NCBI GenBank assembly: GCA_963704725.1
Contig: OY969934.1
Coordinates: 2,176,001 to 2,240,000, forward strand
Origin: an uncultured Actinomycetes bacterium
GTDB taxonomy: Bacteria; Actinomycetota; UBA4738; HRBIN12
Length of the DNA: 64,000 bases
Direction of reading: 5' to 3'
This document shows, piece after piece, positions 3,586 through 23,212 of the stretch. Position 1 is the first letter of the stretch; the number at the start of each line of letters is the position of its first letter. The notes beneath the pieces were generated by a model, which did no database searches, had not been told where the DNA came from, and was given only the letters and a program-made list of their open reading frames with translations. The position numbers and the translations under genes were made by a program.

Positions 3586-4650
3586 ATGCCGATCCCCACC
3601 GAACCGATCGGAAGCATCCCCCGGCCCCAGTCGCTGATCGACGGCATGGGCGCGTTCGCGGCGGGAACGATCTCGCTGCCGGAGCTCCGCCGGCTCCAGG
3701 ACGAGAGCCTCCGGGACACGATCGAGCGGTTCGAGGCGACCGGGTCGCCCGTCATCTCCGACGGGGAACAGACCAAGTCGAGCTTCGTCACCTATCCGCT
3801 CGAGGGTCTGGACGATCTCGTGCCCGACGGCGCGGTGATCCCGTTCGAGGACGGACACACGCGCCAGCTCCCCAGGCTCACGGCGGGGCCGTTCCGGTTC
3901 GGCCGGTACGCGGACGACTACCTGGACGCCGCCAAGGGCTACGCGCACGTGCCGGTCAAGCAGGCCGTGATCGCGGCATCGGCCATCAGCTTGCTGTACC
4001 CGCAGGACGGGATCGATGGATACCCTCGCGATCGATTCCTGGACGATCTCGTCTCCGAGTGCGAGACCGACATCCGCCGCTCGCTCCAGCGGGGCGCGCA
4101 TTGCGTGCAGATCGACTTCACCGAGGGCCGACTGTCGATCAAGCTGGACCCCTCCGGTCACCTGCTGCGCGACTTCATCGCGCTCAACAACCGGGTGCTC
4201 GAGCGCTTCTCCGAGCAGGACCGCGCCCGGATCGGCGTCCACACCTGCCCCGGCGGCGATCGCGACTCCACGCACAGCGCCGACGTCCGGTACGAGGAGC
4301 TCCTGCCCGACCTGTTCCGGCTGAACGTCGGCAACGTGTACGTCGAGCTCGCCGCCGAGCAGGATCGGGGGCACGTGCTCGAGGTGATCGCCGAGCACCT
4401 GCGGCCCGAGCAGCGCATCTTCGTCGGGGTGATCGATCCGATCGACCCGCGCGTGGAATCTGCGGAAGAGGTGCGCGACCGGGTGCTCGAGGCCGCCGAG
4501 GGGCTCCCCGTGTCGCAGCTCGGCACGACGGACGATTGCGGATTCTCGCCGTTCGCCGACGACACGTCGACCTCACGGGACGTGGCGTTCGAGAAGATCC
4601 GCGCGCGGGTCGAGGGCACCCGGCTGGCCGCGGATCGACTCGGCGTCTGA
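3586..4650 (+). CDS. Cobalamin-independent methionine synthase II family protein (MetE catalytic domain only)
   Basis: N-terminal 'TEPIGSIPRP', 'ISDGEQ', Zn-ligand motifs HTC, E (YVELA), 'DDCGF'; RBS GAGGAGG; TACAAT -10 at 3544. Confidence 0.85.
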   Translation: MPIPTEPIGSIPRPQSLIDGMGAFAAGTISLPELRRLQDESLRDTIERFEATGSPVISDGEQTKSSFVTYPLEGLDDLVPDGAVIPFEDGHTRQLPRLTAGPFRFGRYADDYLDAAKGYAHVPVKQAVIAASAISLLYPQDGIDGYPRDRFLDDLVSECETDIRRSLQRGAHCVQIDFTEGRLSIKLDPSGHLLRDFIALNNRVLERFSEQDRARIGVHTCPGGDRDSTHSADVRYEELLPDLFRLNVGNVYVELAAEQDRGHVLEVIAEHLRPEQRIFVGVIDPIDPRVESAEEVRDRVLEAAEGLPVSQLGTTDDCGFSPFADDTSTSRDVAFEKIRARVEGTRLAADRLGV

Positions 4651-9792: not shown

Positions 9793-10809
9793 TCAGCCCT
9801 TGCCCCGGATCCAGTACCCGACGGGGAAGAGCTGGAGCCGGATCCGGCGGCTCACGGCACCCCACACCCCTCGGGGCCACCAGATCGCGACGACCATGGC
9901 CACCAGGCCCAGCACGATCAGGTACCAGGCGCCGTACCGGGACAGGGTCTGCTGCAGGACGAAGAAGATCGCGGTTCCAACGATCGGGCCCTCGATCGTG
10001 CCGATCCCCCCGATCACGGTCACGAAGATCATCTGCGCCGAGAAGCCCACGCTGAACGCCGCCGAGGATTCGATCCCGAGCTGGCTGATGATCAGGATCG
10101 CCCCGGCCGCGCCGCAGCCGGCCGCCGCGACCAGGTACACGATCCGTTTGGCGCGCGACACGCGGGCGCCGGCGCTCCGCGCGGCGGTCTCGTCGTCTCG
10201 GATCGCCGTGAGGACGAGCCCCAGCCGGCTTCGGAGCGTGAGGTAGACGGCGGTCAGTGCGGCCAGGACCACGGCGAGCGCTGCCCAGTACGTGTCCGCG
10301 CCGAGCGCCGTGGGGTCGAAGCCCGACAGGCCGGGCAGCCGCGCGCCGGTCCCGCCCCCGAGCGACCGGAAGCGGCTCACGATCAGATGGCACGTGTCGG
10401 CGGCCACCCAGGTGGCGATGGCGAAGTACCCGCCGCGCAGGCGCAGGAGCAGCAGCGAGATGGGCAAGGCAAGCACCGCGCAGCCGAGCGTCGCGAACGG
10501 GACGGCGACGAACGGGCTGACCCCGTGCTGCGCCAGGACCAGCACGAGGAACGCCCCGATCCCCACGTACGCCTGCTGCCCGACGGAGACGAGGCCGGCG
10601 TAGCCAGCGAGCAAGTTCCACATGCTCGACATCGTGAGCAGGATGAAGACGTTCACGAGCGTGTCCGTGGTGCTCGAGAACACCAGGTACGGCAGGTAGC
10701 CGAGCACGAGCACGATCACCGCGGCTACGGCGAGCGACCCGGCGACCGGTCGCCGCGACCGGGACACGCGGACGGCGGCGGACGTGGTCTCGGTCGACGG
10801 GTCCGGCAC
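9793..10809 (-). CDS. HAAT (branched-chain amino acid family) ABC permease, LivM-like
   Basis: 'WNLLAGYAGLVSVGQ', 'LRLRGGYFAIAT', 'AIRDDETAA'. Confidence 0.9.
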   Translation of the reverse strand: MPDPSTETTSAAVRVSRSRRPVAGSLAVAAVIVLVLGYLPYLVFSSTTDTLVNVFILLTMSSMWNLLAGYAGLVSVGQQAYVGIGAFLVLVLAQHGVSPFVAVPFATLGCAVLALPISLLLLRLRGGYFAIATWVAADTCHLIVSRFRSLGGGTGARLPGLSGFDPTALGADTYWAALAVVLAALTAVYLTLRSRLGLVLTAIRDDETAARSAGARVSRAKRIVYLVAAAGCGAAGAILIISQLGIESSAAFSVGFSAQMIFVTVIGGIGTIEGPIVGTAIFFVLQQTLSRYGAWYLIVLGLVAMVVAIWWPRGVWGAVSRRIRLQLFPVGYWIRGKG

Positions 10810-10812
10810 GGC

Positions 10813-11679
10813 TCAGTCCTCCCGCCCGCGCGCGATGCCCCGCGGTCGCACCGCGAGCACGGCGAAGAAGACGAGGTGGCCGCTCAGCACCCCGTACGCG
10901 GGATCGATGTGCGCACCGATCGTCTGCGCCACGCCCAGGACGATGCCCCCGACGAGCGTCCCCCACAGCGACCCCAGCCCGCCGATCACGACGGTCTCGA
11001 ACGCGAACAGGAGACGGCTCGGCCCGATGCTCGGGTCGAACGTGGAGTACGCGCCGAACGCCAGGCCGGCCAGGGCCACCGTCGACAGCGCAAGCGCGGC
11101 CGCGATGCCGAACACGTGCCGGTAGTCGATGCCGGAGATCTGGCTCGCCTCGCGGTCGTCGGCAACGGCGCGGATCATCCGGCCCGTCGCCGACCTCGAC
11201 AGGAAGTACTGCAGGCCGAGGAGCACGCCCACCGCAAGGACGAAGATCCCGAGCGACAGGTACGCCACCGAGATCTCCGACGTGAGGTGGAAGGACCCGG
11301 ACTTCAGCGTTCCCAGGTCGATCGAACGGCTGTCGGCCGAGAGGAACTCCAACAACCCGTTCTGGATCACGATCGACAACCCGAAGCTCACGAGGAGCAC
11401 CGTGAGCGGCCCGCGCGCCAGGCTCGTCTGGATGAGCGAGCGCTGTCCGACGTACCCGATCGCGGCGAAGAGGGGAACCACGACCACGAACGCGTAGAGC
11501 TGCGGGATCCCCAAGGCGGGCACCAGCCCGACGGCCAGGTACGCGGCCACGACCGCGAGGTCCCCGTGCGCCAGGTTGATCACCCGCATCGTCCCGAACA
11601 GGAGCGACAACCCGCACGCGAGGAGCGCGAACAGACCGCCGAGCAGGACCCCCTGGACGACGACGTTCAGCCAGTCCAC
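10813..11679 (-). CDS. HAAT ABC permease, LivH-like
   Basis: 'GLSLLFGTMRVINLAHG', 'GRMIRAVADD', 'VIGGLGSLWG'. Confidence 0.9.
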   Translation of the reverse strand: MDWLNVVVQGVLLGGLFALLACGLSLLFGTMRVINLAHGDLAVVAAYLAVGLVPALGIPQLYAFVVVVPLFAAIGYVGQRSLIQTSLARGPLTVLLVSFGLSIVIQNGLLEFLSADSRSIDLGTLKSGSFHLTSEISVAYLSLGIFVLAVGVLLGLQYFLSRSATGRMIRAVADDREASQISGIDYRHVFGIAAALALSTVALAGLAFGAYSTFDPSIGPSRLLFAFETVVIGGLGSLWGTLVGGIVLGVAQTIGAHIDPAYGVLSGHLVFFAVLAVRPRGIARGRED

Positions 11680-11686
11680 GTCGACC

Positions 11687-12433
11687 TCACGCCGTCTCGG
11701 ACGCGGCGAGCCCGAAGTACGCCGATTCGATCTCCGTCGGCGTGAACTCGCCGGGCCGCCCCTGGAGCGTCGTCCGCCCCTTGAGGAGGCATTGGATCGT
11801 GGTCGCGACCCGCACTGCCTGGCTCACGTCCTGCTCCACCAGCAGGATGGTGGTTCCCGCCGCGAGCAACTCGGGCAGGACCCCGTAGATCTGGCGGACG
11901 ACGATCGGCGCCAGTCCCAGCGAGAGCTCGTCGAGCAGCAGCAGACGCGGGTTCGACACGAGCGCCCGGCCCAGCGCGACGGCCTGCTGTTCCCCGCCCG
12001 AGAGCTGCCACGCGCGCTGGCGGCGTCGCTCCGGCATCCAGCGGAAGAGCTCGTAGATGCGATCGATCGTCCACGGCCCCGGCCGCGCGTGATACGTGCC
12101 GACGAGCAGGTTCTCCTCCAGGGTGAGAGACGGGAACAGGCGCCGACCCTCGGGGACGAGCGCGATCCCGGCGGCGAACCGTCGCTCGGGCGGTTTCGCG
12201 GTCACGTCCACACCGTCGAGCAGGACCCGGCCGGCCAGCGGGCGATGCAGGCCGGCGATCGTTCGGAGCAGGGTCGACTTGCCGGCGCCGTTGGCCCCGA
12301 TGATCGCCCGCACCTCGCCGGCGGCCACCCGAACGTTCAGCTCGTGCAGCGCCCGAAGCTGTCCGTGGGCGACCGTCAGGTCGCGGACCTCGAGGAGGGG
12401 AACCCCTCCGCCGCCGGGCGCCGGTTCGCTCAC
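11687..12433 (-). CDS. HAAT ABC ATP-binding protein, LivF-like
   Basis: GANGAGKS, 'VPEGRRLF', LSGGEQQ, 'LLDELSLGLAP'. Confidence 0.92.
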   Translation of the reverse strand: MSEPAPGGGGVPLLEVRDLTVAHGQLRALHELNVRVAAGEVRAIIGANGAGKSTLLRTIAGLHRPLAGRVLLDGVDVTAKPPERRFAAGIALVPEGRRLFPSLTLEENLLVGTYHARPGPWTIDRIYELFRWMPERRRQRAWQLSGGEQQAVALGRALVSNPRLLLLDELSLGLAPIVVRQIYGVLPELLAAGTTILLVEQDVSQAVRVATTIQCLLKGRTTLQGRPGEFTPTEIESAYFGLAASETA

Positions 12434-13206
12434 GACGATCGGGCTCTCCCCTCGCCGACCCCCGCCTCCGCCAGGGCATCGGCCGTCGCCTCCGTGCCCA
12501 GGAAGACCTCCTTCACGGCCGGGCTCGCCAGCACGGCTTCGGGATCGCCCTGCCCGACGATCCGGCCACCGGCCAGGCAGACCATCCGATCCACGGTGTC
12601 GGTGAGCGCGCGCACGACGTGCTCGATCCAGACGACGCCGACGCCCTCGAGCCGAACGCTCCGCACGATCTCGACCAGGTCGCCGACCTCGGGGTCGGTC
12701 AGCCCGCCGGCGACCTCGTCCAGCAGCAGCAGCTTGGGACGCGTCGCCAGGGCGCGCGCCAGCTCGAGCCGCTTGCGCTGGAGCAGACCCAGCGCTCCGG
12801 CCGGCCCGTTGGCAAGCTCCGCGAGCCCCGTGCGCTCGAGCGCCGACGCCGCCAGCTCGAAGCTCTCCGCCCCGCGGGCACCCGCCCCCTGCTGGGCGGC
12901 CAGGAGCGTGTTCTCGAACACCGTCATGTCATGGAACGGCCGGGGCACCTGGTAGGTACGCCCGATGCCGAGCCGGGACCGCCGGGCGGCGTCGAGCCTG
13001 GTGATCGGCCTGCCCTCGAAGCGGACCTCCCCGCCGTTCGGCGTGAGATCTCCCGACATGATCCCGAACAGGCTCGTTTTGCCGGCGCCGTTGGGCCCGA
13101 CGATGCCGAGTGCCTCACCCGCCCGGACCTCGAGCGTCAGATCGTCGGCCACGACGACCTGGCCGAACCGCTTCTCGATGCGGTCCAGCTCGAGGAGGGC
13201 ACCCAC
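12430..13206 (-). CDS. HAAT ABC ATP-binding protein, LivG-like
   Basis: GPNGAGKT, 'GIGRTYQ', 'LELARALA', 'LLDEVAGG', 'IEH'; GTG start inferred. Confidence 0.9.
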   Translation of the reverse strand: MGALLELDRIEKRFGQVVVADDLTLEVRAGEALGIVGPNGAGKTSLFGIMSGDLTPNGGEVRFEGRPITRLDAARRSRLGIGRTYQVPRPFHDMTVFENTLLAAQQGAGARGAESFELAASALERTGLAELANGPAGALGLLQRKRLELARALATRPKLLLLDEVAGGLTDPEVGDLVEIVRSVRLEGVGVVWIEHVVRALTDTVDRMVCLAGGRIVGQGDPEAVLASPAVKEVFLGTEATADALAEAGVGEGRARSS

Positions 13207-13216
13207 GGACCGCAGA

Positions 13217-14590
13217 CTAGGCGTTCGTCGGGACCAGGTCGCCGCCGATCGGGACGTCCGGGTTGATGCTGTTGTCGACGACGACCATCTCCCAGTCGAA
13301 GTTCGTGCCCGGCTTCCACTGCACACCCACCGGGTTCACGATCCCGATCCCGGGGATCGTGGGGCTGTTCGGGTCCGCAGGGTCGATGTGCGGTCCGGTC
13401 GTGAAGTCGAGCGGGCCGGACATGCCCGTGTAGTTCACCTTGAACAGGGCGTCCGCGACCGCGTCGCCGTCGTGCGGGTCGTCGACGGTGGCGAACGCCT
13501 CCTTCGCCACCTCGAACAGCGAGTAGGTCGACCCCAGCGTCTGCAGCCACTGGGCGCCGGTCTCCTCCTGGAACGCGTTGGCCAGGTCCTCGGCCGTGTC
13601 GCCGGACAGGCTCGAGGTGTACGGCATGAACGGGCCCCACCAGGAGTCGGTCGCGATGTTGTTCACGAGGTCGCCGAGCGCCTCGGTCTCCGCCGGGAAC
13701 AGCAGGACCTTGGCCACCGTGGCCAGCTTCGGCGCGTAGCCCTGCTGCGCCGCCTGCGTCCAGAACGTGTTGAAGTCGGGCGGCAGCGGCGCGTTGATGT
13801 AGATCTGGCAGTCCTGCTGCTTGAACTGCGAGATCATCTGCGAGAAGTCGGTGAGCTGCAGGTCCGGATAGGCGCCGCCGTCCACGAACGTGTAGCCGGC
13901 CGCGTCGATGATGCCCGGCCACGCGTCGCGGAACGCATTGCCGTCCGCGTCGTTGGGGAACATGCCGCCGACGACCTTGTTCGTGTCGACGCGGTTCCAC
14001 ATCGGGACGAAGCACCCGCCGAACGCCTCCGCGCCGAAGAAGAACATCGTGGAGTAGGTGAACGGCTGGGGGTTCGCCGGATCGGCCTGCCGCGCGAAGT
14101 ACCACGCCTGCCACGGCACCACCGTCGACAAGCACGGGACCTTCGCCGACTCGCACGCGGTCGCGACCGGGTTCGTCGTCTCCGGCGTGGAGCTCGTCAC
14201 GATCAGGTCCGCGTGGTTCTGGTTGATGAGCTCGCGGGCGACCTGGGACGCGCGGTTGGGGTCCGACTGAGAGTCCTTCACGACGACCTCGACCGAGTAG
14301 GTCGTTCCGCCGACCTGGAAGCCGTTCTGGTACGCGTCGGTGGCCCTGATCCGGTCGACGACGAAGTTGTCACCAGAGGCGAAGCCGGCCAGGGCTCCGG
14401 TCTGCGGGGTCACGAACCCAATCACGATCGTGTCGGTGCTTCCGCTCCCCGATCCCTTCACGTCGCTGGTACAGGCGTCGAGGATCCCCCCGGCCCCCAG
14501 CATCACCGCGCCCGCGCCGATCCCCTTCAGGAGAGACCGGCGGGAGATCGCCTGCTCGAGCAGCGGGTCCCATCGCTCCCGCTCGGCCAT
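13217..14590 (-). CDS. HAAT ABC substrate-binding lipoprotein, Tat-exported; probable aromatic acid/aldehyde binding
   Basis: 'SRRSLLKG' Tat motif, lipobox-like 'LDAC', type-1 periplasmic binding motif 'KDSQSDPNRA'; RBS AAGGGGG. Confidence 0.85.
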   Translation of the reverse strand: MAERERWDPLLEQAISRRSLLKGIGAGAVMLGAGGILDACTSDVKGSGSGSTDTIVIGFVTPQTGALAGFASGDNFVVDRIRATDAYQNGFQVGGTTYSVEVVVKDSQSDPNRASQVARELINQNHADLIVTSSTPETTNPVATACESAKVPCLSTVVPWQAWYFARQADPANPQPFTYSTMFFFGAEAFGGCFVPMWNRVDTNKVVGGMFPNDADGNAFRDAWPGIIDAAGYTFVDGGAYPDLQLTDFSQMISQFKQQDCQIYINAPLPPDFNTFWTQAAQQGYAPKLATVAKVLLFPAETEALGDLVNNIATDSWWGPFMPYTSSLSGDTAEDLANAFQEETGAQWLQTLGSTYSLFEVAKEAFATVDDPHDGDAVADALFKVNYTGMSGPLDFTTGPHIDPADPNSPTIPGIGIVNPVGVQWKPGTNFDWEMVVVDNSINPDVPIGGDLVPTNA

Positions 14591-14644
14591 ACGTCCCCCT
14601 TTCCCCCACCCCGCGCGTCCGGGCCGTCCGGAGAGCGCACGGTC

Positions 14645-14687
14645 ATTCGCAGCGCGGACTCTAGGCATGAACACCGGGCATGGTCAA
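14645..14687 (-). promoter_or_regulatory. Transporter promoter with PcaR-type box
   Basis: -35 TTGACC (14682-14687), 18 bp spacer, -10 TAGAGT (14658-14663); box ATTCGC-AGC-GCGGAC at 14645-14659. Confidence 0.65.
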
Positions 14688-14715
14688 TCTCCTGCGCCGA
14701 GATGCAACGGCGCGA

Positions 14716-15543
14716 CTACTCGATGCCGGGCGCGGCCGGGCGGCCGGTCCCGCTCTGGGCCCGGAGATCGGCCTCGATCTGCTCCGCCGTTGCCCTCAGC
14801 TTCGGAACGAGCTCCGTCTCGAGGTCGTCCAGGCTCTTCATCGACGCGTGCACCGGGACCGCCAGCCCGGCGATGACCCGGCCGGACTGATCGCGGATCG
14901 GCACGCCCACCGAGCGGAGGCCCTCCTCGAGCTCCTGATCCACGAGTGCATACCCCCGCTCCCGTACCTCCTCGACGAGCGTTCGCAGCTCGCCGAGGAG
15001 GGACACGGTGTGCGACGTCAGCGGCTCCAGGCGGAGCCGCTCCAGGTAGCGCTCGAGCTCGTCGGGATCGAGCCCGGCCAGCAGGACCCGCCCCATCGAT
15101 GTCGCGTACGCCGGCAGGCGGGTTCCCACGGGGATGGCCACGATCATGATCCGCCGGGCGGGAACCCGCAGGACGCAGACCACCTCGTCCCCGTCCAGGA
15201 CCCCGACCGTCGCCGACTCCTGCAGCGTCGTCACCAGCTCCTCGACGTGGGGCTGGGCCACCTCGAGGAAGCTCATCCCGGACAGGAACGCGTAACCGAG
15301 CTCGAGGACCCTCGGTCGCAGGGAGAACTCCCGTCCGTTCGAGCTGACGTAGCCGAGCTCGACGAGGGTATGCAGGAAGCGCCGGGCCGCCGAACGCGTG
15401 AGGCCCGTCGAGCGCGCCACCTCGCTCAGCGTGAGTCGCTCCTGGTCCTGTCCGAACGCCCGGATCACCGCCAACCCCCGGTCGAGCGCGCGGACGAAGT
15501 CGCCGTTTCGGCTGGGGTGGCTATCGTCGTCTGGGGTCGGCAC
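14716..15543 (-). CDS. pcaR: IclR-family regulator (PcaR/PobR-like)
   Basis: 'FVRALDRGLAVIRAF...TLSEVARSTGLTRSAARRFLHTL', 'GTRLPAYATSMGRVLL', 'DQELEEGLRS'; pca context. Confidence 0.85.
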   Translation of the reverse strand: MPTPDDDSHPSRNGDFVRALDRGLAVIRAFGQDQERLTLSEVARSTGLTRSAARRFLHTLVELGYVSSNGREFSLRPRVLELGYAFLSGMSFLEVAQPHVEELVTTLQESATVGVLDGDEVVCVLRVPARRIMIVAIPVGTRLPAYATSMGRVLLAGLDPDELERYLERLRLEPLTSHTVSLLGELRTLVEEVRERGYALVDQELEEGLRSVGVPIRDQSGRVIAGLAVPVHASMKSLDDLETELVPKLRATAEQIEADLRAQSGTGRPAAPGIE

Positions 15544-15595
15544 GGCGCGGTCACGATAGGAGGGGCCTCGCGGTCGGTCAACCGGTCCCCGCCCC

Positions 15596-15663
15596 TTGAC
15601 AGTTCCGCGGGGTTCGTCGCACAGTCGCATCCGCTCCGCGCATGGCGCGTCCGCCGTGCGAAC
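15596..15663 (+). promoter_or_regulatory. Promoter of aldehyde dehydrogenase-pobA operon with PcaR-type box
   Basis: TTGACA 15596-15601, 18 bp spacer, CACAGT 15620-15625; box GTCCGC-CGT-GCGAAC 15649-15663. Confidence 0.7.
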
Positions 15664-15694
15664 GGCGCGCTCGCTCCGGAAGGGGGGACGACCG

Positions 15695-17152
15695 GTGGCG
15701 CTTCTCGACACGGCCGCGTGGCCGAGCAAGATCTTCCAGGACGGCTGGGTGCCGGGCTCCGGAGGCGACCGAGCCGTCATCGAGCCGGCGACGGGCGACG
15801 AGCTCGGCCGCATCGGGCTCGCGAACGGCGCCGACGTCGCGCGGGCCGCCGCGCGCGCCTCCGAGGCGCAGCGCCCCTGGGCCGCAACGGGCTACCTCGA
15901 GCGCGGCGCGATCATGCGCCGGGCCGGCCGGCTCTTCGAGGAGCACGCCGAGGAGATCCAGGGCTGGATCATCCGCGAGACGGGGGCCATCCCGCCCAAG
16001 GCGCAGCTCGAGACGTGGTTCGCGGCGACGACCTGCTACGAGTCGGCGGGCCTCACCTCGCTGCCGTACGGCGAGCTGCTGCAGACCCGCGACCCGATCC
16101 TCAGCATGTCGCGACGGATCCCCGTCGGCGTCGTCGGCGTGATCTCCCCCTTCAACTTCCCGCTGATCCTGTCGATCCGCGCGGTGGCACCGGCCCTGGC
16201 GCTCGGCAACGCCGTGATCCTGAAGCCCGATCCCCGGACCTCCGTGGCCGGCGGCGTCGTCCTCGCCCGGATCTTCGAGGAGGCCGGCGTCCCGGAGGGC
16301 TTGTTCTCGGTGCTCCCCGGCGATGCCACGACCGGCGAGGCGCTCATCTCCGACCCCGGCGTGACCATGATCTCGTTCACCGGCTCCTCACGCGCCGGGA
16401 AACAGGTCGGTCAGCTCGCGGCGAAGCACCTGAAGCGCGCCCACCTGGAGCTGGGCGGCAACAACGCGCTGATCGTGCTCGACGACGTCGACGTCGAGCG
16501 AGCCGTGTCCGTCGGCGCGTTCGGCTCGTTCATGCACCAGGGACAGGTCTGCATGACGACCGGGAAACACCTGGTGGCGCGCGACATCGCCGACACGTAC
16601 GCAGAGGTCCTCGCGGCGCACGCGGAGCACACCCCCGTCGGCAACCCCGCCACCGAGCAGGTCGCCCTCGGCCCGATCATCGACGAGCAGCAGCGGGATC
16701 GCGTGCATCGGATCGTCACCGACACCGTCGGTGCGGGCGCGCGCCTGGCCGCGGGCGGCACGTACGAGGGGCTCTTCTACCGCCCGACGGTCCTCGCCGA
16801 CGTGCCCACGGATGCGCCGGCGTTCACCGAGGAGATCTTCGGCCCGGTCGCGCCCGTCGTGCCGTTCGACTCCATCGACGAGGCCGTCAAGCTCGCCGCG
16901 TCGAGCGAGCACGGGCTGTCGCTGGGGATCCTCACCCGGGACGTCATGAAGGGGCTCGAGATCGCCGAGCGCATACCGACCGGCGTGGTGCACATCAACG
17001 ACCAGACCGTGTCCGACGAGGTGGTGAACCCGTTCGGCGGGGTGAAGGCGACGGGGAGCTCCTGGATCGGCGGACCCAGGGCGAACATCGAGGCCTTCAC
17101 CACGACGCAATGGGTCACCGTGCGAGGCGACCTCCCCGAGTACCCGTTCTAG
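15695..17152 (+). CDS. Benzaldehyde/4-hydroxybenzaldehyde dehydrogenase (ALDH family)
   Basis: 'ISPFNFP', 'FTGS', catalytic 'LELGGN', 'HQGQVCM', 'EEIFGP'; RBS AAGGGGGG before GTG. Confidence 0.88.
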   Translation: MALLDTAAWPSKIFQDGWVPGSGGDRAVIEPATGDELGRIGLANGADVARAAARASEAQRPWAATGYLERGAIMRRAGRLFEEHAEEIQGWIIRETGAIPPKAQLETWFAATTCYESAGLTSLPYGELLQTRDPILSMSRRIPVGVVGVISPFNFPLILSIRAVAPALALGNAVILKPDPRTSVAGGVVLARIFEEAGVPEGLFSVLPGDATTGEALISDPGVTMISFTGSSRAGKQVGQLAAKHLKRAHLELGGNNALIVLDDVDVERAVSVGAFGSFMHQGQVCMTTGKHLVARDIADTYAEVLAAHAEHTPVGNPATEQVALGPIIDEQQRDRVHRIVTDTVGAGARLAAGGTYEGLFYRPTVLADVPTDAPAFTEEIFGPVAPVVPFDSIDEAVKLAASSEHGLSLGILTRDVMKGLEIAERIPTGVVHINDQTVSDEVVNPFGGVKATGSSWIGGPRANIEAFTTTQWVTVRGDLPEYPF

Positions 17153-17172
17153 GCGGGCCCTCGGCGAGCGCG

Positions 17173-18357
17173 ATGCGAACGCAGGTCGGTATCGTGGGGG
17201 CGGGCCCCGCGGGGCTCCTGCTCTCGCACCTGCTGCACCTGAACGGGATCGACTCCGTCGTGCTGGAGGACCAAACGCGCGATCACGTCGAGCAGCGCGT
17301 GCGTGCCGGGGTCCTCGAGCAGGGCACGGTCGACCTGATGCGCGAGACCGGCCTGGCCGACCGGCTCGACCGCGAGGGGCTCGTGCACCACGGCATCGAG
17401 CTCCGCTTCGCCGGGGAGGCGCACCGCATCCCGATGACCGACCTCACGGGTCGCTCGATCTACATCTACGGCCAGCAGGAGGTCGTGAAGGACCTCATCG
17501 CGGCCCGTGTGGCCGCCGGCGGCTCGATCCTGTTCGAGGTCGAGGACGTCCGGCCCGAGGGCTTCGACGGCGACGAGCCCGTGCTCCGCTTCCGGCGGGA
17601 CGGCCGGGACTACGAGCTGCGGTGCGACGTGATCGCCGGCTGCGACGGCTCCCACGGCGTGTGCCGCGAGGCCGTCCCGGGCGGTGTGCTACGCACGCTC
17701 GAGATCGACTACCCGTTCGCCTGGCTCGGCGTGCTCGCCGCGGTGCCGCCCTCCACCGACGAGCTCATCTACGCGAACCACGAGCGCGGGTTCGCGCTGC
17801 ACAGCCTGCGCTCACCCGAGATCAGCCGGCTCTATCTGCAGGTCGCGCCCGACGAGGACGTGGCCGACTGGCCGGACGAGCGCGTCTGGGACGAGCTGGG
17901 CCGGCGACTGGAGCTGCCCGGGTGGTCGTTGCGGACGGGACCCGTGCTCGAGAAGAGCGTGGCGTACATGCGCAGCTTCGTCGTCGAGCCGATGCAGTAC
18001 GGACGCATGTACCTGGCCGGCGATGCCGCGCACATCGTCCCGGCGACGGGCGCGAAGGGTCTGAACCTCGCCGTGAACGACGTCCGCGTGCTCTCCGAGG
18101 CCCTGTGCCACTGGTTCCGGACCGGCGAGACACGGCTCCTCGACGGGTACTCGGATCGCGTGCTGCAGCGCGTGTGGCGCGCGCAGAACTTCTCCCAGTG
18201 GATGAGCGCGATGCTGCATCGGTTCCCCGGCGCGGATCCGTTCACGGACCGGTTGCAGCGCAATCAGCTCGAGTACGTGTGCAGCTCCGTGGCGGCGGCC
18301 ACCGGCCTGGCCGAGAACTATGTCGGGCTGCCGTTCGACGTGACGGTGGCGGCATGA
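17173..18357 (+). CDS. pobA: 4-hydroxybenzoate 3-monooxygenase
   Basis: 'MRTQVGIVGAGPAGL', 'RAGVLEQG', 'CDGSHG', 'YPFAWLG', 'GDAAHIVPATGAKGLNLA', 'AENYVGLP'. Confidence 0.95.
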   Translation: MRTQVGIVGAGPAGLLLSHLLHLNGIDSVVLEDQTRDHVEQRVRAGVLEQGTVDLMRETGLADRLDREGLVHHGIELRFAGEAHRIPMTDLTGRSIYIYGQQEVVKDLIAARVAAGGSILFEVEDVRPEGFDGDEPVLRFRRDGRDYELRCDVIAGCDGSHGVCREAVPGGVLRTLEIDYPFAWLGVLAAVPPSTDELIYANHERGFALHSLRSPEISRLYLQVAPDEDVADWPDERVWDELGRRLELPGWSLRTGPVLEKSVAYMRSFVVEPMQYGRMYLAGDAAHIVPATGAKGLNLAVNDVRVLSEALCHWFRTGETRLLDGYSDRVLQRVWRAQNFSQWMSAMLHRFPGADPFTDRLQRNQLEYVCSSVAAATGLAENYVGLPFDVTVAA

Positions 18358-19457
18358 CGGCGGCGCCGACGTGGCGAGCGGAGGTGGTCGGCAGCCTGCT
18401 CCGGCCCCCGTACCTGAAGGACGCGTTCGAGCGCGCCGACCGGGGCGAGATCGACGATGTCGAGCTCGCGCGGACGCAGGACCGGGCGGCGCTCGAGGCC
18501 GTCGCGCTCCAGGAGGCGTGCGGCGTCGACGTGGTGACCGACGGCGAGGTCCGCCGGCGATTCTGGTTCGACCCGCTCACGGCGAGCCTGTCCGGCTACA
18601 ACCCCGAGGAGACGGCCCCGGTGCCGTTCACCCGGGGCGGGGAGACCGCGGCCGGACCCCCGCCGAAGCTGCCCGTCGTCACCGAGCGGCTCGGCCTCGC
18701 GCGGAACCTCCCGCTCGAGGAGTTCGCGTTCCTGCGCGCCCACACGGAGCGACCGACCAAGGCGACGATCGCCGGGATGACGTACGCGAGCGTGCTGTAC
18801 GTCCCGGGGATCTCCGAAGCGGCGTATCCGGACCGCGAGGAGTACATGGCGGATGCGTTGCGGCTCATGACCGAGGTGGTTCGCGAAGCCGCGGCGGCCG
18901 GCGTCCGGCACGTCCAGCTGGACTCGCCGCGCTACACGCACCTGGTGAGCGAGGAGGGCCGGGCCAACCTGGCGAAGGTCGGCCTCGACCCCTCGACGTG
19001 GCTGTCGCAGATGATCGGGTACGACAACGCGCTGATCCGGTCGGTCCCCGAGGTGACGTGGGCCGTGCACCTGTGTCGCGGGAACCACCGCAGCATGTGG
19101 TCCGTGGAGGGCGGCTACGACGACATCGCGGAGCAGCTCTTCAACGGCCTCGAGGTCGACCGCATCCTGGCCGAGTACGACTCGCCGAGGTCCGGGACGT
19201 TCGAGCCGCTCCGTTTCGTCCCGCCCGAGAAGACGGTCGTGCTCGGCCTGATCACCACCAAGGAGCCCGAGCTCGAGGACGCCGACCAGCTCCGTCGCCG
19301 CATCGACGAGGCCTCGGCGTTCGTGTCGCTGGATCGGCTGGCGCTCTCCCCTCAGTGCGGCTTCGCCTCGACCCTGCCGGGCAACCTGGTGACCTTCGAC
19401 GACCAGCGCGCCAAGCTCGAGCTCCTCGCCGGGGTGGCGCGCCGGGTGTGGGGGTAA
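18354..19457 (+). CDS. MetE catalytic-domain (YxjH-like) Zn-dependent thiol alkyltransferase homologue
   Basis: 'RAEVVGSLLRP', 'VTDGEVRR', 'HLCRGN', 'AEYD', 'LSPQCGFAS'; ATGA overlap with pobA stop. Confidence 0.85.
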   Translation: MTAAPTWRAEVVGSLLRPPYLKDAFERADRGEIDDVELARTQDRAALEAVALQEACGVDVVTDGEVRRRFWFDPLTASLSGYNPEETAPVPFTRGGETAAGPPPKLPVVTERLGLARNLPLEEFAFLRAHTERPTKATIAGMTYASVLYVPGISEAAYPDREEYMADALRLMTEVVREAAAAGVRHVQLDSPRYTHLVSEEGRANLAKVGLDPSTWLSQMIGYDNALIRSVPEVTWAVHLCRGNHRSMWSVEGGYDDIAEQLFNGLEVDRILAEYDSPRSGTFEPLRFVPPEKTVVLGLITTKEPELEDADQLRRRIDEASAFVSLDRLALSPQCGFASTLPGNLVTFDDQRAKLELLAGVARRVWG

Positions 19458-19464
19458 CCCGGGC

Positions 19465-19845
19465 TCAGCCCGGTCCGGCGTCCTGGAGCGCCCGGCCCGC
19501 GATCCGGAACGCCTCGTTCGCGGCCGGCACGCCGGCGTAGACCGCCGTGTGGAGCAGGACCTCGGCGATCTCCTGCGGCTCGAGCCCGAGCCGGCGCGCC
19601 GCTCGGACATGCATCTCGATCTCCTGGTGACATCCGAGCGCGGTGAGGACGGCGAGCGTGATGCACGAGCGCGTCCGGCGGTCGAGCCCGGGCCTGGCCC
19701 ACACCCCGCCCCAGGCGGATCGGGTCACGTAGTCCTGGAAGGGTGCGCTGAACGCGGTCGTGGACGCGATCGCCGCGTCGACGTGCTCGTCGCCGAGCAC
19801 CTCGCGTCGCACGCCCATGCCGGTCTCGTACGTCGGATCGATCAT
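19465..19845 (-). CDS. pcaC: 4-carboxymuconolactone decarboxylase
   Basis: 'GMGVRREVLGDEHVD', 'AWGGVWARPGLDRRTRSCIT', 'AVYAGVPAAN'. Confidence 0.92.
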   Translation of the reverse strand: MIDPTYETGMGVRREVLGDEHVDAAIASTTAFSAPFQDYVTRSAWGGVWARPGLDRRTRSCITLAVLTALGCHQEIEMHVRAARRLGLEPQEIAEVLLHTAVYAGVPAANEAFRIAGRALQDAGPG

Positions 19846-20618
19846 CGTGCCTCCTCGCTCGCGAGCAGGTGCTCGCGGATCAGGGCGGTCACCTCCTCGG
19901 GACGCTCCACGTTCGCCAGGTGCGCGGCGTCCACCGTGGCGGCGCGGCACCTCGGGATGCCCTCGGCGAGGAGCCGGGCATCGTCCTGCGGCATCGAGGG
20001 ATCTCGCGCCCCCGACACGACGAGCGTGTCGGCCCGGATGTCGCCGAGAGCCGCGCGCAGGTCCGCGGTCCCGACCGCCTCGCAGCACGCCGCGTAGCCC
20101 TCGGGCGGCGTCGCGGCGATCATGTCGCGCATTCTCGTCACGACCGCGGGCTCCCGCCGCGCGAACCCGGGCGTGAACCATCGGCCCACCACCAGGTCGG
20201 CCACGGCGCCCGTGCCCTCGGCCCGGACGAGCGCGGCGCGTTCGAACCAGGCCGCGGGCGGAGCGAATCGCGGCGAGGTGCAGCACAGCACGAGGCGATC
20301 CACGCGATCGGGCGCGTGCGCCGCCACCCACATCGAGACCATCGCCCCGATCGAGAGCCCGGCGAGGTGCGCGCGCTCGACGCCGAGGCCATCCAGTAGC
20401 GCGAGCAGATCCGCGCCGAGGTCCGAGAGGTCGTACGGCGGCGGCGGGACCGGTGACCGGCCGTGCCCGCGCAGGTCGTAGCGAACGACGCGGAAGTCCT
20501 CCGCCAACACCGCGACCTGCGGTTCCCACATGTCGAGCGTGCTGCCGAGCGAGTTCGACAGGACCAGGACGGGCCCGCCGGGCGGCCCCTCGACGAGGTG
20601 GTGGACCTCGACGCTCAC
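19842..20618 (-). CDS. pcaD: 3-oxoadipate enol-lactonase
   Basis: 'LSNSLGS', 'YDLRGHG', nucleophile elbow 'GLSIG', 'AAHLANVE'. Confidence 0.92.
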   Translation of the reverse strand: MSVEVHHLVEGPPGGPVLVLSNSLGSTLDMWEPQVAVLAEDFRVVRYDLRGHGRSPVPPPPYDLSDLGADLLALLDGLGVERAHLAGLSIGAMVSMWVAAHAPDRVDRLVLCCTSPRFAPPAAWFERAALVRAEGTGAVADLVVGRWFTPGFARREPAVVTRMRDMIAATPPEGYAACCEAVGTADLRAALGDIRADTLVVSGARDPSMPQDDARLLAEGIPRCRAATVDAAHLANVERPEEVTALIREHLLASEEAR

Positions 20619-21970
20619 GAGCCGCGGTGTGCCGCGAGCGCCCGGTCGACCAGAGCCTCGGCGCTGCCGAGGTAGCCGGAGGGATCGAGGAGCTCCCCGA
20701 TCGCGTGCGCCGAGAGCTGCGCCGAGACCTCCGGGCTCCGCTCGAGGACCTCCGCGAACGGCCGCCCCTGCGAGACGGCGAGCGCGCTCGCGTCCTCGAC
20801 GAGCCGGTGCGCCTCGAGGCGGCCGAGGGCGGGGGCAAGCGCGGACACCACCCGCTCGGCGAGCAGCAGCCCTCCCGTCCGATCGAGGTTCGCGCGCATC
20901 GTCGACGCGTCCACCTGTAGGTGCTCGAGGCAGTCCCGGAGCCACGCCGCCGCGGACCCCACCGAGATCAGCAGGGTGCCGAGGGGAAGCCATTCGGCGT
21001 GCCACGCGCCCGCCGCGCGCTCGTGCTCCGGCGAGGCGGCCGCCAGGATCGTCGACACGAGCCCCGGCGCCTGCCGGGCGCACGCGATCGCGCTCACCGC
21101 GGCGATGGGGTTCCGCTTGTGCGGGAGCGTGGACGATCCGCCCCGGCCCGGCGCGCCCTCGCGCACCTCTCCCACCTCGGTCTGTGCCAGCAGGACGACG
21201 TCGCCGGCAGCCTTGCCGATCGCGCCGGCGGCCTCGCCCAGCGCACCGGCGACCTCGGAGACCCGCGTGCGGTCGGTGTGCCAGGGCAGGATCGGGTGCG
21301 CCAGCCCCAGCTCGTCGGCGAACGCGGCCGCCACCGCGGGCCCGGACTCACCGAGGGAGGCGAGCGTGCCGGCCGCGCCACCGAGCTGGGCCGCCAGCCG
21401 CCGGTCGCGCACCGACGTCAGGCGCTCGGCCGCCTCGTCGAGGGCCACCATCCACCCGGCGGCCTTCAGCCCGAACGTCGTCGGGAGCGCCTGCTGCAGC
21501 AGCGTCCGAGCCGCCATCGGCGTGGCGCGATGCCGGTCCGCCTGGTCGGCCGCGGCGTCGGCGGCCGCCCGCAGGTCGTCCAGGAGCGGCTCGAGGCTGC
21601 GGCGGACGACCAGCATCGCGGCGGTGTCCATCACGTCCTGGCTCGTCAGGCCCCGATGGACGTGCCGCGCCGCCGAGCCCCCCACGGCCTCGGTCAGCGC
21701 GGCGACGAGTGGGACGACCGGGTTGCCGTCGTCCGCGGCCTGCCGGCCGATCGCCCCGACGTCGAACGCCTCGGCGCGGCAGGCCCGGGCGATCGCCTCG
21801 GCGTCCTCGGCCGGAGCGAGACCCACCCGCGCCAGGGCCCGGGCGAGCGCCGCCTCGGCGTCGAGCATCGCCTGGAGCCACGCGCGATCGCCGGCCTCGT
21901 GGCGAACCCGGCCGCGGGCCAGGACGCCCTCGAACAGGCCGCCCTCAGAGGTCGAAGAAGACGGTCTCAC
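20615..21970 (-). CDS. pcaB: 3-carboxy-cis,cis-muconate cycloisomerase
   Basis: Fumarase superfamily signature 'GGSSTLPHKRNP', 'HRGLTSQD', 'EHERAAGAWHAEW'. Confidence 0.92.
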   Translation of the reverse strand: MRPSSSTSEGGLFEGVLARGRVRHEAGDRAWLQAMLDAEAALARALARVGLAPAEDAEAIARACRAEAFDVGAIGRQAADDGNPVVPLVAALTEAVGGSAARHVHRGLTSQDVMDTAAMLVVRRSLEPLLDDLRAAADAAADQADRHRATPMAARTLLQQALPTTFGLKAAGWMVALDEAAERLTSVRDRRLAAQLGGAAGTLASLGESGPAVAAAFADELGLAHPILPWHTDRTRVSEVAGALGEAAGAIGKAAGDVVLLAQTEVGEVREGAPGRGGSSTLPHKRNPIAAVSAIACARQAPGLVSTILAAASPEHERAAGAWHAEWLPLGTLLISVGSAAAWLRDCLEHLQVDASTMRANLDRTGGLLLAERVVSALAPALGRLEAHRLVEDASALAVSQGRPFAEVLERSPEVSAQLSAHAIGELLDPSGYLGSAEALVDRALAAHRGS

Positions 21971-22487
21971 CGTCGCCCTGCAGCCGGATGTCGAACCGGT
22001 ACCCGTCCTCGCTCCGCCGAGCCAGGAGCGTCTCGCGGCGCGAGGGATCGACGGCGTCCAGGACGGGATCGGACGCGTTCGCCGCCTCCTCGTCCTCGAA
22101 GTAGATCCGAGTCGCAGCCCGCTTGAGGAGCCCGCGGGCGAAGACCGAGACGTCGACGTGGGGCGCCTGCACGACGCCGTTCGGTCCCGCCAGCCGGCCG
22201 GGCTTCACCGTCAGGATCCCCCACTCGCCCGCCGGGTCGGTCGAGGCCCGCCCGAACCCCCGGAAGGGTCCCGTCGCCGGCGCGTCGGGGAACCGGCCGT
22301 CCGCGTCGGCCTGCCACGTCTCGACCATCGCGTCGGGCACGGGTTCGCCGGCGCCGTCAAGGACGCGACCGCGGATCCACAGCGCTCCGGTCGCGCCCTC
22401 CGCGACGACGTGGGGACCTGCCGGCCACGGCAGGCCGATGGCGAAGAAGGGCCCCACCGTCTGCGACGGCGTGCGCCCCGCGCTCAA
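21945..22487 (-). CDS. pcaG: Protocatechuate 3,4-dioxygenase alpha subunit
   Basis: 'TPSQTVGPFF', 'ETWQADADG', 'QAPHVDVSVFARGLL', 'DIRLQGDGETVFFDL'; TTG start overlapping pcaH stop. Confidence 0.92.
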   Translation of the reverse strand: MSAGRTPSQTVGPFFAIGLPWPAGPHVVAEGATGALWIRGRVLDGAGEPVPDAMVETWQADADGRFPDAPATGPFRGFGRASTDPAGEWGILTVKPGRLAGPNGVVQAPHVDVSVFARGLLKRAATRIYFEDEEAANASDPVLDAVDPSRRETLLARRSEDGYRFDIRLQGDGETVFFDL

Positions 22488-23212
22488 CCGTCGCCGTCCC
22501 GCTCGAAGGGGGTCGAGGCTCGGCCCCCCACGACGATGTCGAACTCGAAGCCCAGCGCCCACTCCGGGACCGTCTCGGACAGGTCGAACCGAGAGATCAG
22601 CCGGCTTCGCGCCGCGGGGTCCGGGATCGAGTTGAAGATCGGGTCCTGCCCGAAGAGCGGATCGTCCGGGAAGTACATCTGCGTGACGAGGCGCTGCGTG
22701 AAGTTGCGCCCGAACACGGAGAAGTGCACGTGGGCCGGCCGCCAGGCGTTCGCGTGGTTGCGCCACGGGTACGCCCCCGGCCTGATCGTCACGAACCGGA
22801 ACCGGCCCTCGTCGTCCGTGACGCATCGGCCCGCTCCCGTGAAGTTCGGATCGAGCGGTGCCGGGTGGTTGTCGCCGTCGTGGCGGTACCGCCCGGCCGC
22901 GTTCGCCTGCCACACCTCCACGAGCGACCGGCGGATGGGCCGCCCGTCCGGACCCAGGAGCGTGCCGTGCACGATGATCCGCTGCCCCTGGGGCTCGCCC
23001 CCATGCCCGGCCGTGAGGTCGTGGTCGAGCTCGCCGACCCGGTCGTATCCGAGGAGCGGACCGCCCAGCGCCGCGAGATGGTCGGGCATGGCAACCAGCG
23101 GCCGCAGCGGGGCCCGCAGCCGAGTCGCCACGTAGTCGGGGTACAGGTACGGGGGATCGACGTCGGCGACGTCGGCCGCCTCGATCGCTCGAGCGGCGGG
23201 CTCTGGCGGCAT
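22484..23212 (-). CDS. pcaH: Protocatechuate 3,4-dioxygenase beta subunit
   Basis: 'EVWQANAAGRYRH', 'DPNFTGAGR', 'PGAYPWRNH.NAWRPAHVHFS', 'TQMYF'. Confidence 0.95.
   Translation of the reverse strand: MPPEPAARAIEAADVADVDPPYLYPDYVATRLRAPLRPLVAMPDHLAALGGPLLGYDRVGELDHDLTAGHGGEPQGQRIIVHGTLLGPDGRPIRRSLVEVWQANAAGRYRHDGDNHPAPLDPNFTGAGRCVTDDEGRFRFVTIRPGAYPWRNHANAWRPAHVHFSVFGRNFTQRLVTQMYFPDDPLFGQDPIFNSIPDPAARSRLISRFDLSETVPEWALGFEFDIVVGGRASTPFERDGDG

Follow-up and report, generated by a model that had tools for sequence, protein, structure and literature searches.

P0003, a 367-residue protein related to the cobalamin-independent methionine synthase MetE, is encoded within a 64,000-nt stretch of DNA (the window) from an uncultured Actinomycetes bacterium, and its gene is strongly tied to the catabolism of aromatic compounds. 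It closes a predicted three-gene operon (15695-19457) comprising an aldehyde dehydrogenase, the 4-hydroxybenzoate 3-monooxygenase PobA and the MetE-like protein, which are presumably co-transcribed, and is flanked by a divergent regulator of the PcaR/PobR type on one side and by the convergent genes pcaHGBDC on the other. We tentatively favour the reading, at somewhat less than an even chance, that P0003 is a folate- and corrinoid-independent O-demethylase of methoxybenzoates that passes the methyl group to a zinc-activated thiol, probably homocysteine; such chemistry is plausible. The broader proposition, that its subfamily constitutes a further mechanistic class of aryl O-demethylase in which a single 40-kDa zinc enzyme moves the methyl group of 4-methoxybenzoate, vanillate or guaiacol straight to homocysteine without O2, folate, corrinoid or reductant, is possible but doubtful. 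The features of the operon are as follows:

15695-17152, plus strand: aromatic aldehyde dehydrogenase (4-hydroxybenzaldehyde/benzaldehyde/vanillin dehydrogenase-like), GTG start; PF00171, 467 bits
17173-18357, plus strand: pobA, 4-hydroxybenzoate 3-monooxygenase, ATG start; NF006091, 596.5 bits against a cut-off of 351
18354-18357, plus strand: ATGA overlap joining the pobA stop to the MetE-like start
18354-19457, plus strand: MetE-like protein P0003, 367 amino acids; PF01717, 43 bits against a cut-off of 21, residues 21-338

The three genes had been placed at these coordinates in an initial annotation of the same DNA, with which the family searches agree, and the ATGA overlap that it described is read directly in the sequence.

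Among Pfam families, P0003 matches PF01717 only, with no VanA Rieske, LigM/DesA GcvT or P450 domain. The protein and 1YPX are collinear from end to end (E 1.1e-57); this closest solved relative is a structural-genomics entry described as a 'putative B12-independent methionine synthase family protein'. An AlphaFold2 model built on a 70-sequence alignment (predicted local distance difference test, pLDDT, 94; predicted template modelling score, pTM, 0.92) adopts the C-terminal (beta-alpha)8 barrel fold of MetE, and Foldseek searches with it return 1YPX (E 3.6e-21), the MetE of Thermotoga maritima (E 2e-18, TM 0.76) and 3RPD. The next matches, an MtaA-like methyltransferase and UroD, follow far behind (E 1e-7 to 1e-8). 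They lend some credit to a thiol-free reaction on the barrel shared by MetE and UroD, such as the decarboxylation or hydration of an aromatic acid, as do the Amidohydro_2 genes of decarboxylase type that recur in some of the clusters described below. The similarity to UroD is remote, however, at 10-13% identity, and P0003 conserves all four ligands of zinc and those of homocysteine, none of which UroD needs, so that a reaction of this kind is highly improbable.

The active site was compared with that of T. maritima MetE, for which the available part of the structural study assigns residues to the zinc, homocysteine and folate sites (PMC539065); positions were mapped by profile alignment to the PDB chain, in which the number of a residue equals that of the paper plus 32. 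The zinc ligands H618, C620, E642 and C704 align to H239, C241, E274 and C335 of P0003, in keeping with the initial annotation, which had called the zinc site intact. Three of these (H239, C241 and C335) are invariant in alignments of both 11 and 70 sequences, and E274 is invariant in the first and present in at least 90% of the second. The counterparts of the homocysteine ligands S411, E462 and D577, namely S14, E65 and D190, are likewise invariant or nearly so in both alignments. The same part of the structural study describes a DMV motif (467-469) that couples the homocysteine and folate sites, a tryptophan (W539) that stacks on the pterin and a glutamate (E583) that binds it (PMC539065). 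In P0003 the motif is replaced by F70-W71-F72 and the tryptophan by V147, while the position of Glu583 falls within an insertion; the N-terminal barrel (Meth_synt_1) is missing, leaving a single barrel. P0003 is not a canonical MetE, since three defining features of that enzyme fail, and it scores 22 bits on TIGR01371 against a cut-off of 929.95. From its residues, it looks like an enzyme that uses zinc to activate homocysteine, or another amino-acid thiol resembling it, and does not look like an enzyme that takes a methyl group from methyl-folate as MetE does.

Such a site might instead serve thiol conjugation, in which the zinc-thiolate would attack a quinone, an epoxide, or a benzylic or beta-aryl ether carbon for detoxification or ether cleavage, as in epoxyalkane:coenzyme M transferase. 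The initial annotation had raised this alternative. The zinc site is intact, the MetE family does include a non-methyl alkyltransferase, and the gene is tied to enzymes handling oxidation-prone ortho-diphenols. The textbook pathway offers no obvious electrophile, however, and conjugation is less favoured because the residues that bind the amino and carboxyl groups of homocysteine are kept, invariant or nearly so, which points to an amino-acid thiol. It is accordingly rated as quite unlikely.

On sequence, P0003 belongs to a separate subfamily related to the YxjG/YxjH-type proteins (1YPX; NF004875, NF005085), with which it shares length and motifs. It is regarded as related but separate because it aligns over its full length yet falls below both cut-offs, scoring 263.6 bits against 313 on NF005085 (PRK06520) and 194 bits against 576 on NF004875 (PRK06233). 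In an exhaustive search, the orthologues fall into one 50%-identity cluster at 588 bits, followed by the nearest other full-length relative with 305 bits and 47% identity.

The tie to aromatic catabolism was examined in 53 loci of close relatives, drawn from metagenome-assembled genomes (MAGs) of Actinomycetota and Chloroflexota with flanks of 8 kb. A pobA gene lies within the flanks in 39 of the 53, and one further locus carries pca genes only. The pobA-linked loci fall into at least six distinct gene orders. In the order typical of the window, a binding protein and PcaR are divergent from the genes for aldehyde dehydrogenase, PobA and the MetE-like protein, and pcaCDBGH is convergent. Elsewhere, the aldehyde dehydrogenase and MetE-like genes are accompanied by pobA on the opposite strand (L001); pcaHGBDC precedes the genes for aldehyde dehydrogenase, MetE-like protein and PobA (L005); a minus-strand pobA and a regulator lie upstream of the MetE-like gene (L010); or the aldehyde dehydrogenase, MetE-like, PobA and PcaB genes follow one another (L036). 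A further arrangement, found in about 22 Solirubrobacterales loci, comprises a minus-strand aldehyde dehydrogenase, GntR, the MetE-like protein, a short GCV_T protein, an MFS transporter, PobA, SDR, a zinc alcohol dehydrogenase and a PaaK-like ligase, with an Amidohydro_2 gene and a MaoC hydratase upstream. Where pobA lies directly upstream of the MetE-like gene (11 relatives examined), the 4-nt overlap recurs in two (L009 and L024), and seven have gaps of 13-60 nt, mostly with a GGAGG-type site ahead of the MetE-like start; of the remaining two, L002 yielded no start and L003 is frameshifted. The pobA and/or MetE-like frames are also split in L048, L051 and L052, which like L003 are long-read MAG contigs, and these breaks are probably assembly indels rather than pseudogenes.

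A phyletic profile was drawn over 294 genomes of the window's class, counting as orthologues proteins of at least 70% identity and as pobA matches of E at or below 1e-80. The orthologue is present in 15 genomes, the source genome included, and pobA in 16. All 15 carriers have pobA on the same contig at no more than about 420 bp, and in the sole genome with pobA only (G182), an assembly of 430 contigs, the gene lies on a short contig. These counts include two unpublished genomes, G009 with both genes and G182, without which adjacency stands at 14 of 14. In this class, the MetE-like gene is accessory, follows pobA in its occurrence and is its obligate companion.

The association extends to other phyla. 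Of 79 further loci, from more distant relatives, the MetE-like gene adjoins pob or pca genes in nine (L108, L109, L114, L126, L127, L130, L136, L141 and L142), at 40-47% identity. Two in Chloroflexota (L109 and L114; Ktedonobacterales and Thermomicrobiales) have the genes in the order MetE-like, PobA, PcaC, PcaHG, PcaB. Four in Acidobacteriota (L126, L127, L130 and L136) have pcaHG adjoining and no pobA within the flanks, with pcaR nearby in L126, L127 and L136 and an aldehyde dehydrogenase in L126 and L127. In a fifth from Acidobacteriota (L142), pcaR is the immediate upstream neighbour, and pcaIJF, pcaHG and pobA lie farther out on that side, the last about 7 kb away. Recurrence beside pobA and pca genes, which the initial annotation had put forward as a test, is thus seen among close relatives, in every carrier of the class and in other phyla.

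Linkage to pob or pca genes was mapped on a tree of 126 proteins built by maximum likelihood (IQ-TREE quick search, LG+G4). It is found for 38 of 58 members of the clade containing P0003, for 6 of 31 in an Acidobacteriota/Dehalococcoidia clade and for 0 of 37 in a Proteobacteria/Binatia/Desulfobacterota clade. The linkage label requires at least 12 changes on this tree against a mean of 36.5 after shuffling, and none of 500 shuffles was as low. As kinship inflates tree statistics, the independent support lies in the variety of gene orders and phyla. Clustering of the neighbours of 125 loci likewise recovered pob, aldehyde dehydrogenase and pca genes, together with the partners specific to Solirubrobacterales. 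Chance neighbourhood was considered and is rejected on the strength of the 39 of 53 loci, the adjacency in 15 of 15 carriers, the recurrence in other phyla and the tree test.

This distribution bears on a more conservative explanation, that P0003 is a housekeeping or stand-by methionine synthase with a non-folate donor, in the manner of MesA-D, that hitch-hikes in the pob/pca cluster. Every source annotates the protein as a methionine synthase, and one clade of the family, with 0 of 37 members linked, is free of pca association. Core MetE enzymes that use other donors do exist: as far as the available portions of two studies describe them, these core methionine synthases (MesA-D/core-MetE) lack the folate domains, as does P0003, draw on corrinoid proteins or on MesX and O2, and serve methionine biosynthesis (PMC7857596, PMC7005905). 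In contrast to these, the P0003 gene has no adjoining corrinoid protein or MesX, and its partners are pobA, pca and the aldehyde dehydrogenase; on NF006589, which was used as a test for MesD, P0003 scores 57.5 bits against a cut-off of 392. MesX (PF08908) had no match in the source genome, in a search whose control also gave 0 of 14 genomes. Against a housekeeping role stand also the accessory distribution (15 of 294 genomes, tracking pobA) and a linkage that persists through at least six rearrangements and is seen again in other phyla. The source genome moreover encodes a full-length MetH (TIGR02082, 1585 bits), because of which P0003 is unnecessary for methionine synthesis. The chance that it is a mere hitch-hiker is very slim.

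The source genome, a single 3.45-Mb contig that is 95% complete, contains no two-barrel MetE and three single-barrel MetE-like genes, of which P0003 is one. The second, which encodes a divergent protein of 354 residues (3586-4650, plus strand; PF01717, 44 bits; NF003317, 68 bits), is found in the window 14 kb upstream of P0003. It is flanked by an unassigned gene for 566 residues and by an M36-type metallopeptidase, and aromatic genes are absent from its surroundings. The third (C1:1494142-1495260, L056:1381-2493; NF005085, 235 bits) shares 40% identity with P0003, groups with the Acidobacteriota/Dehalococcoidia proteins in the tree and is situated about 2.4 kb downstream of a P450 match (C1:1491248-1491796).

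O-demethylation is the simplest fit to these observations because P0003 belongs to a family of thiolate alkyl-transfer enzymes, keeps a pocket for homocysteine and not for folate, has partners that produce or use up 4-hydroxybenzoate, protocatechuate or catechol, has in L126 and L127 the neighbours described below, and is not accompanied by VanA, LigM or DesA. The initial annotation had reported neither vanAB nor a ligM-type demethylase in the window; indeed, VanA_C has no match in the whole source genome, and its 8 GCV_T and 5 P450 matches all lie outside the window. In the proposed route, P0003 would be a single-barrel zinc alkyltransferase of the MetE family recruited into the 4-hydroxybenzoate/protocatechuate funnel, where it would supply PobA with 4-hydroxybenzoate made from 4-methoxybenzoate, produce protocatechuate from vanillate, or do both. 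The zinc-bound thiolate, most probably that of L-homocysteine to give methionine, would receive the methyl group directly, with no participation of O2, folate or corrinoid. Anisaldehyde, vanillin and 4-hydroxybenzaldehyde, which are common metabolites of lignin and fungi, could thereby be brought to protocatechuate in three steps by the aldehyde dehydrogenase, the demethylase and PobA, and the products of pcaHGBDC would then take over.

The Acidobacteriota loci that pair pcaHG with alcohol or aldehyde dehydrogenases and are without pobA bear on this route, as they would seem to call for a non-oxygenase step from a benzoate to protocatechuate that is most simply a demethylation. In L126 and L127 the aldehyde dehydrogenase is the sole other peripheral enzyme gene adjoining, to which L126 adds an alcohol dehydrogenase, and the MetE-like protein would be the only candidate for an oxygenase-free conversion of benzoate to protocatechuate. 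The alcohol dehydrogenase of L126 (5061-6890), a pyrroloquinoline quinone (PQQ)-dependent quinohaemoprotein, is separated from the downstream MetE-like gene by a PcaR-like gene, which it immediately precedes; in L144 (5637-7667), where the flanks hold no pca match, a second enzyme of this type is the direct upstream neighbour of the MetE-like gene. Both bear a PQQ propeller and a cytochrome c domain, and suggest a route that starts from aromatic alcohols.

A sister lineage, represented by L015 (7289-13134) and L034, combines GntR, the MetE-like protein, a DUF6282 protein, an RraA-like aldolase and a catechol 2,3-dioxygenase (TIGR03211, 322 bits against a cut-off of 320) in the absence of pob and pca genes. 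There the enzyme could convert guaiacol to catechol, the ortho-diphenol substrate of the dioxygenase. The cluster is a meta-cleavage counterpart of the pobA/pca association, and its DUF6282 domain is fused in L015 to PIG-L and DUF1932.

O-demethylation, which the initial annotation had put forward as a speculation, agrees with the pattern of residues and, in several clusters, with the logic of the pathway, while activity, substrate, acceptor and direction of reaction are all inferred from these; the separate role as a 'methyl sink' that was mentioned with it found no support. Several observations weigh against such a demethylase or against the linkage on which it is built. Phenolate is a poor leaving group, we know of no MetE-family enzyme that uses an aryl methyl ether as donor, and none was found in literature searches. 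Stoichiometric use of homocysteine in catabolism needs a recycling of methionine, and no such gene recurs nearby: no methionine or S-adenosylmethionine recycling gene was recurrent in the 125 loci, although genes are poorly called in the loci of lower G+C, where such absences are weak. Genes of the pob and pca type are absent from the flanks in 13 of the 53 close-relative loci. Two of these (L037 and L053) are short contigs, two are the catechol 2,3-dioxygenase loci L015 and L034, one is L043, and four (L038-L041) have neighbours with no aromatic signature, such as an NMT1 binding protein, TauE and AllG in L039 and L040 and FecR with a glycosyltransferase in L041. Partial copies at 56-58% identity occur in two genomes of the class (G237 and G238) in which pobA has no match, and one of these copies contains two in-frame TGA codons. 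Kinship among the genomes inflates all of the linkage counts. VanA_C is found in 6 of the 15 orthologue-bearing genomes and in 12 of the 279 others (the unpublished G291 among the 12). The idea that the MetE-like protein simply replaces VanA, from which mutual exclusion would be expected, was dropped because of this co-occurrence. Finally, the short gene of folate-binding fold that follows the MetE-like gene in Solirubrobacterales, and the MTHFR of one Chloroflexota locus (L043), would fit a folate-linked role.

That role can be stated as one-carbon (C1) recycling, in which a folate-dependent demethylase that has escaped recognition would yield 5-methyl-tetrahydrofolate and the MetE-like protein would regenerate tetrahydrofolate by methylating homocysteine, the ligands of which it keeps; the ligM-metF-ligH genes of Sphingobium are reportedly a parallel. 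In 20 of 20 Solirubrobacterales loci (e.g., L020:9088-9741), a gene for a stand-alone 218-residue GCV_T/SoxG-like protein starts 0-2 nt from the MetE-like stop, a spacing that marks translational coupling, and the two may form a two-protein methyltransferase. The Chloroflexota locus (L043:1529-14602) encodes three Meth_synt_2 proteins (386, 368 and 339 residues), so that two accompany the MetE-like protein, along with the MTHFR and a LigB-type dioxygenase; it holds a cupin, two amidohydrolases and NMT1-type binding proteins as well, and resembles an aromatic and C1 island. The source genome also has several GcvT/DmdA-like paralogues. Five of them (L059-L063), of 381-414 residues, include an adjacent pair (C1:1955916 and C1:1957169), and three of the five score best on the DmdA model, at 298-355 bits under a cut-off of 410. 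On the LigM and DesA models, however, the best of seven GCV_T-family genes scored reach 76 and 78 bits against cut-offs of 580 and 800. The window contains no GCV_T-family gene, the short GCV_T protein has no orthologue in the source genome (best match 29% identity, E 2.7e-4), and the coupling is to pobA and pcaHG rather than to a GcvT-type gene. P0003 lacks the folate determinants of MetE, with no N-terminal domain and with substitution of DMV by FWF and of Trp539 by Val, and MetH is present and could serve the same end. C1 recycling is thus judged unlikely.

P0003 shares with the C-terminal barrel of MetE (T. maritima 1XPG/1XDJ; PF01717) the fold, the His-Cys-Glu-Cys zinc site and the Ser/Glu/Asp ligands of homocysteine, but it is half the size and is an accessory protein of an aromatic-catabolism operon, whereas MetE is biosynthetic. 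The known aryl O-demethylases, namely the Rieske system VanAB, LigM and DesA with their GcvT fold and tetrahydrofolate, the P450 systems and the corrinoid methyltransferases of anaerobes, carry out the net reaction proposed for P0003 (aryl-OCH3 to aryl-OH) at the same position in the pathway, but the fold of P0003 and its proposed chemistry are unrelated to theirs. Betaine-homocysteine methyltransferase, in which the zinc-thiolate of homocysteine takes a methyl group from a catabolic substrate, provides a precedent for homocysteine as a catabolic methyl acceptor, although it belongs to another family and its quaternary ammonium donor presents a far better leaving group than phenolate. Literature searches, with supplementary tables outside their scope, returned no study connecting a MetE-like protein with pobA or with the catabolism of vanillate or protocatechuate.

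O-demethylation is the rate-limiting and costliest step in the microbial funnelling of lignin-derived aromatics, and the known enzymes need O2 and a reductant, with release of formaldehyde, or folate recycling, or corrinoid proteins. If direct transfer from an aryl ether to homocysteine were real, it would define a new class of O-demethylase, and lignin valorisation would have an attractive tool in a demethylase that consists of one protein, works without cofactors and saves the methyl group in the form of methionine. In soil Actinomycetota, Chloroflexota and Acidobacteria, the methoxy groups of lignin and fungal compounds would in that case become the methyl group of methionine while the ring is sent to pcaHG, adding a link between plant methoxy groups and the C1 and sulfur metabolism of soil. 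Whatever the exact reaction, the gene represents a large unannotated enzyme subfamily that annotation pipelines mislabel as methionine synthase.

Because the G+C content of the window is about 71%, genes were called by third-position G+C, followed by family searches. The genes and control region that surround the operon are as follows:

9793-14590, minus strand: Liv-type ATP-binding cassette (ABC) uptake system, from Pfam and NCBIfam matches, as are its parts
9793-10809 and 10813-11679, minus strand: Liv permeases
11687-12433 and 12430-13206, minus strand: Liv ATPases
13217-14590, minus strand: Peripla_BP_6 binding protein
14716-15543, minus strand: IclR-family regulator of the PcaR/PcaU/PobR type; TIGR02431, 310.7 bits against a cut-off of 284.75; HTH_IclR and IclR_C domains
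15544-15694: divergent control region with promoter-like hexamers and a dyad
19465-19845, minus strand: pcaC; TIGR02425, above cut-off
19842-20618, minus strand: pcaD; TIGR02427, above cut-off
20615-21970, minus strand: pcaB; TIGR02426, above cut-off
21945-about 22487, minus strand: pcaG; matched with pcaH to the alpha and beta chains of protocatechuate 3,4-dioxygenase in a PDB sequence search
22484-23212, minus strand: pcaH; same search

The closest solved relatives of the aldehyde dehydrogenase are a 4-hydroxybenzaldehyde dehydrogenase (9JW2; E 1.4e-102), 3R64 and 9IHB, a set that includes benzaldehyde and vanillin dehydrogenases. Its TAG stop (17150-17152) is separated by a 20-nt spacer from pobA, the product of which scores 528.2 bits on TIGR02360, slightly below the cut-off of 538.7. 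At the other end of the operon, the TAA stop of the MetE-like gene (19455-19457) is separated by 7 nt from the convergent pcaC stop.

Upstream of the aldehyde dehydrogenase gene, a promoter-like element consists of TTGACA (15596-15601), an 18-nt spacer and CACAGT (15620-15625). Both hexamers are kept in each of the 8 orthologous intergenic regions that were aligned, and are followed by a dyad of the GTTCG...CGAAC type, a candidate for the PcaR-type box of the initial annotation by comparison with the Pseudomonas site. A strict consensus scan of 14600-19900 listed no plus-strand promoters and no terminators, so that the call of this promoter rests on its conservation; the scan did list a minus-strand promoter-like site for the regulator gene (15581-15553). 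The Peripla_BP_6 protein, encoded upstream of the regulator, is 65-88% identical across the loci of the window type, and the gene context suggests that the Liv-type uptake system may be specific for aromatic acids. Within the convergent pca cluster, the pcaH stop and the probable TTG start of pcaG share 4 nt (TTGA; 22484-22487, minus strand), overlaps of 4 nt occur also between pcaD and pcaC and between pcaB and pcaD, and the open reading frames called for pcaG and pcaB overlap by 26 nt.

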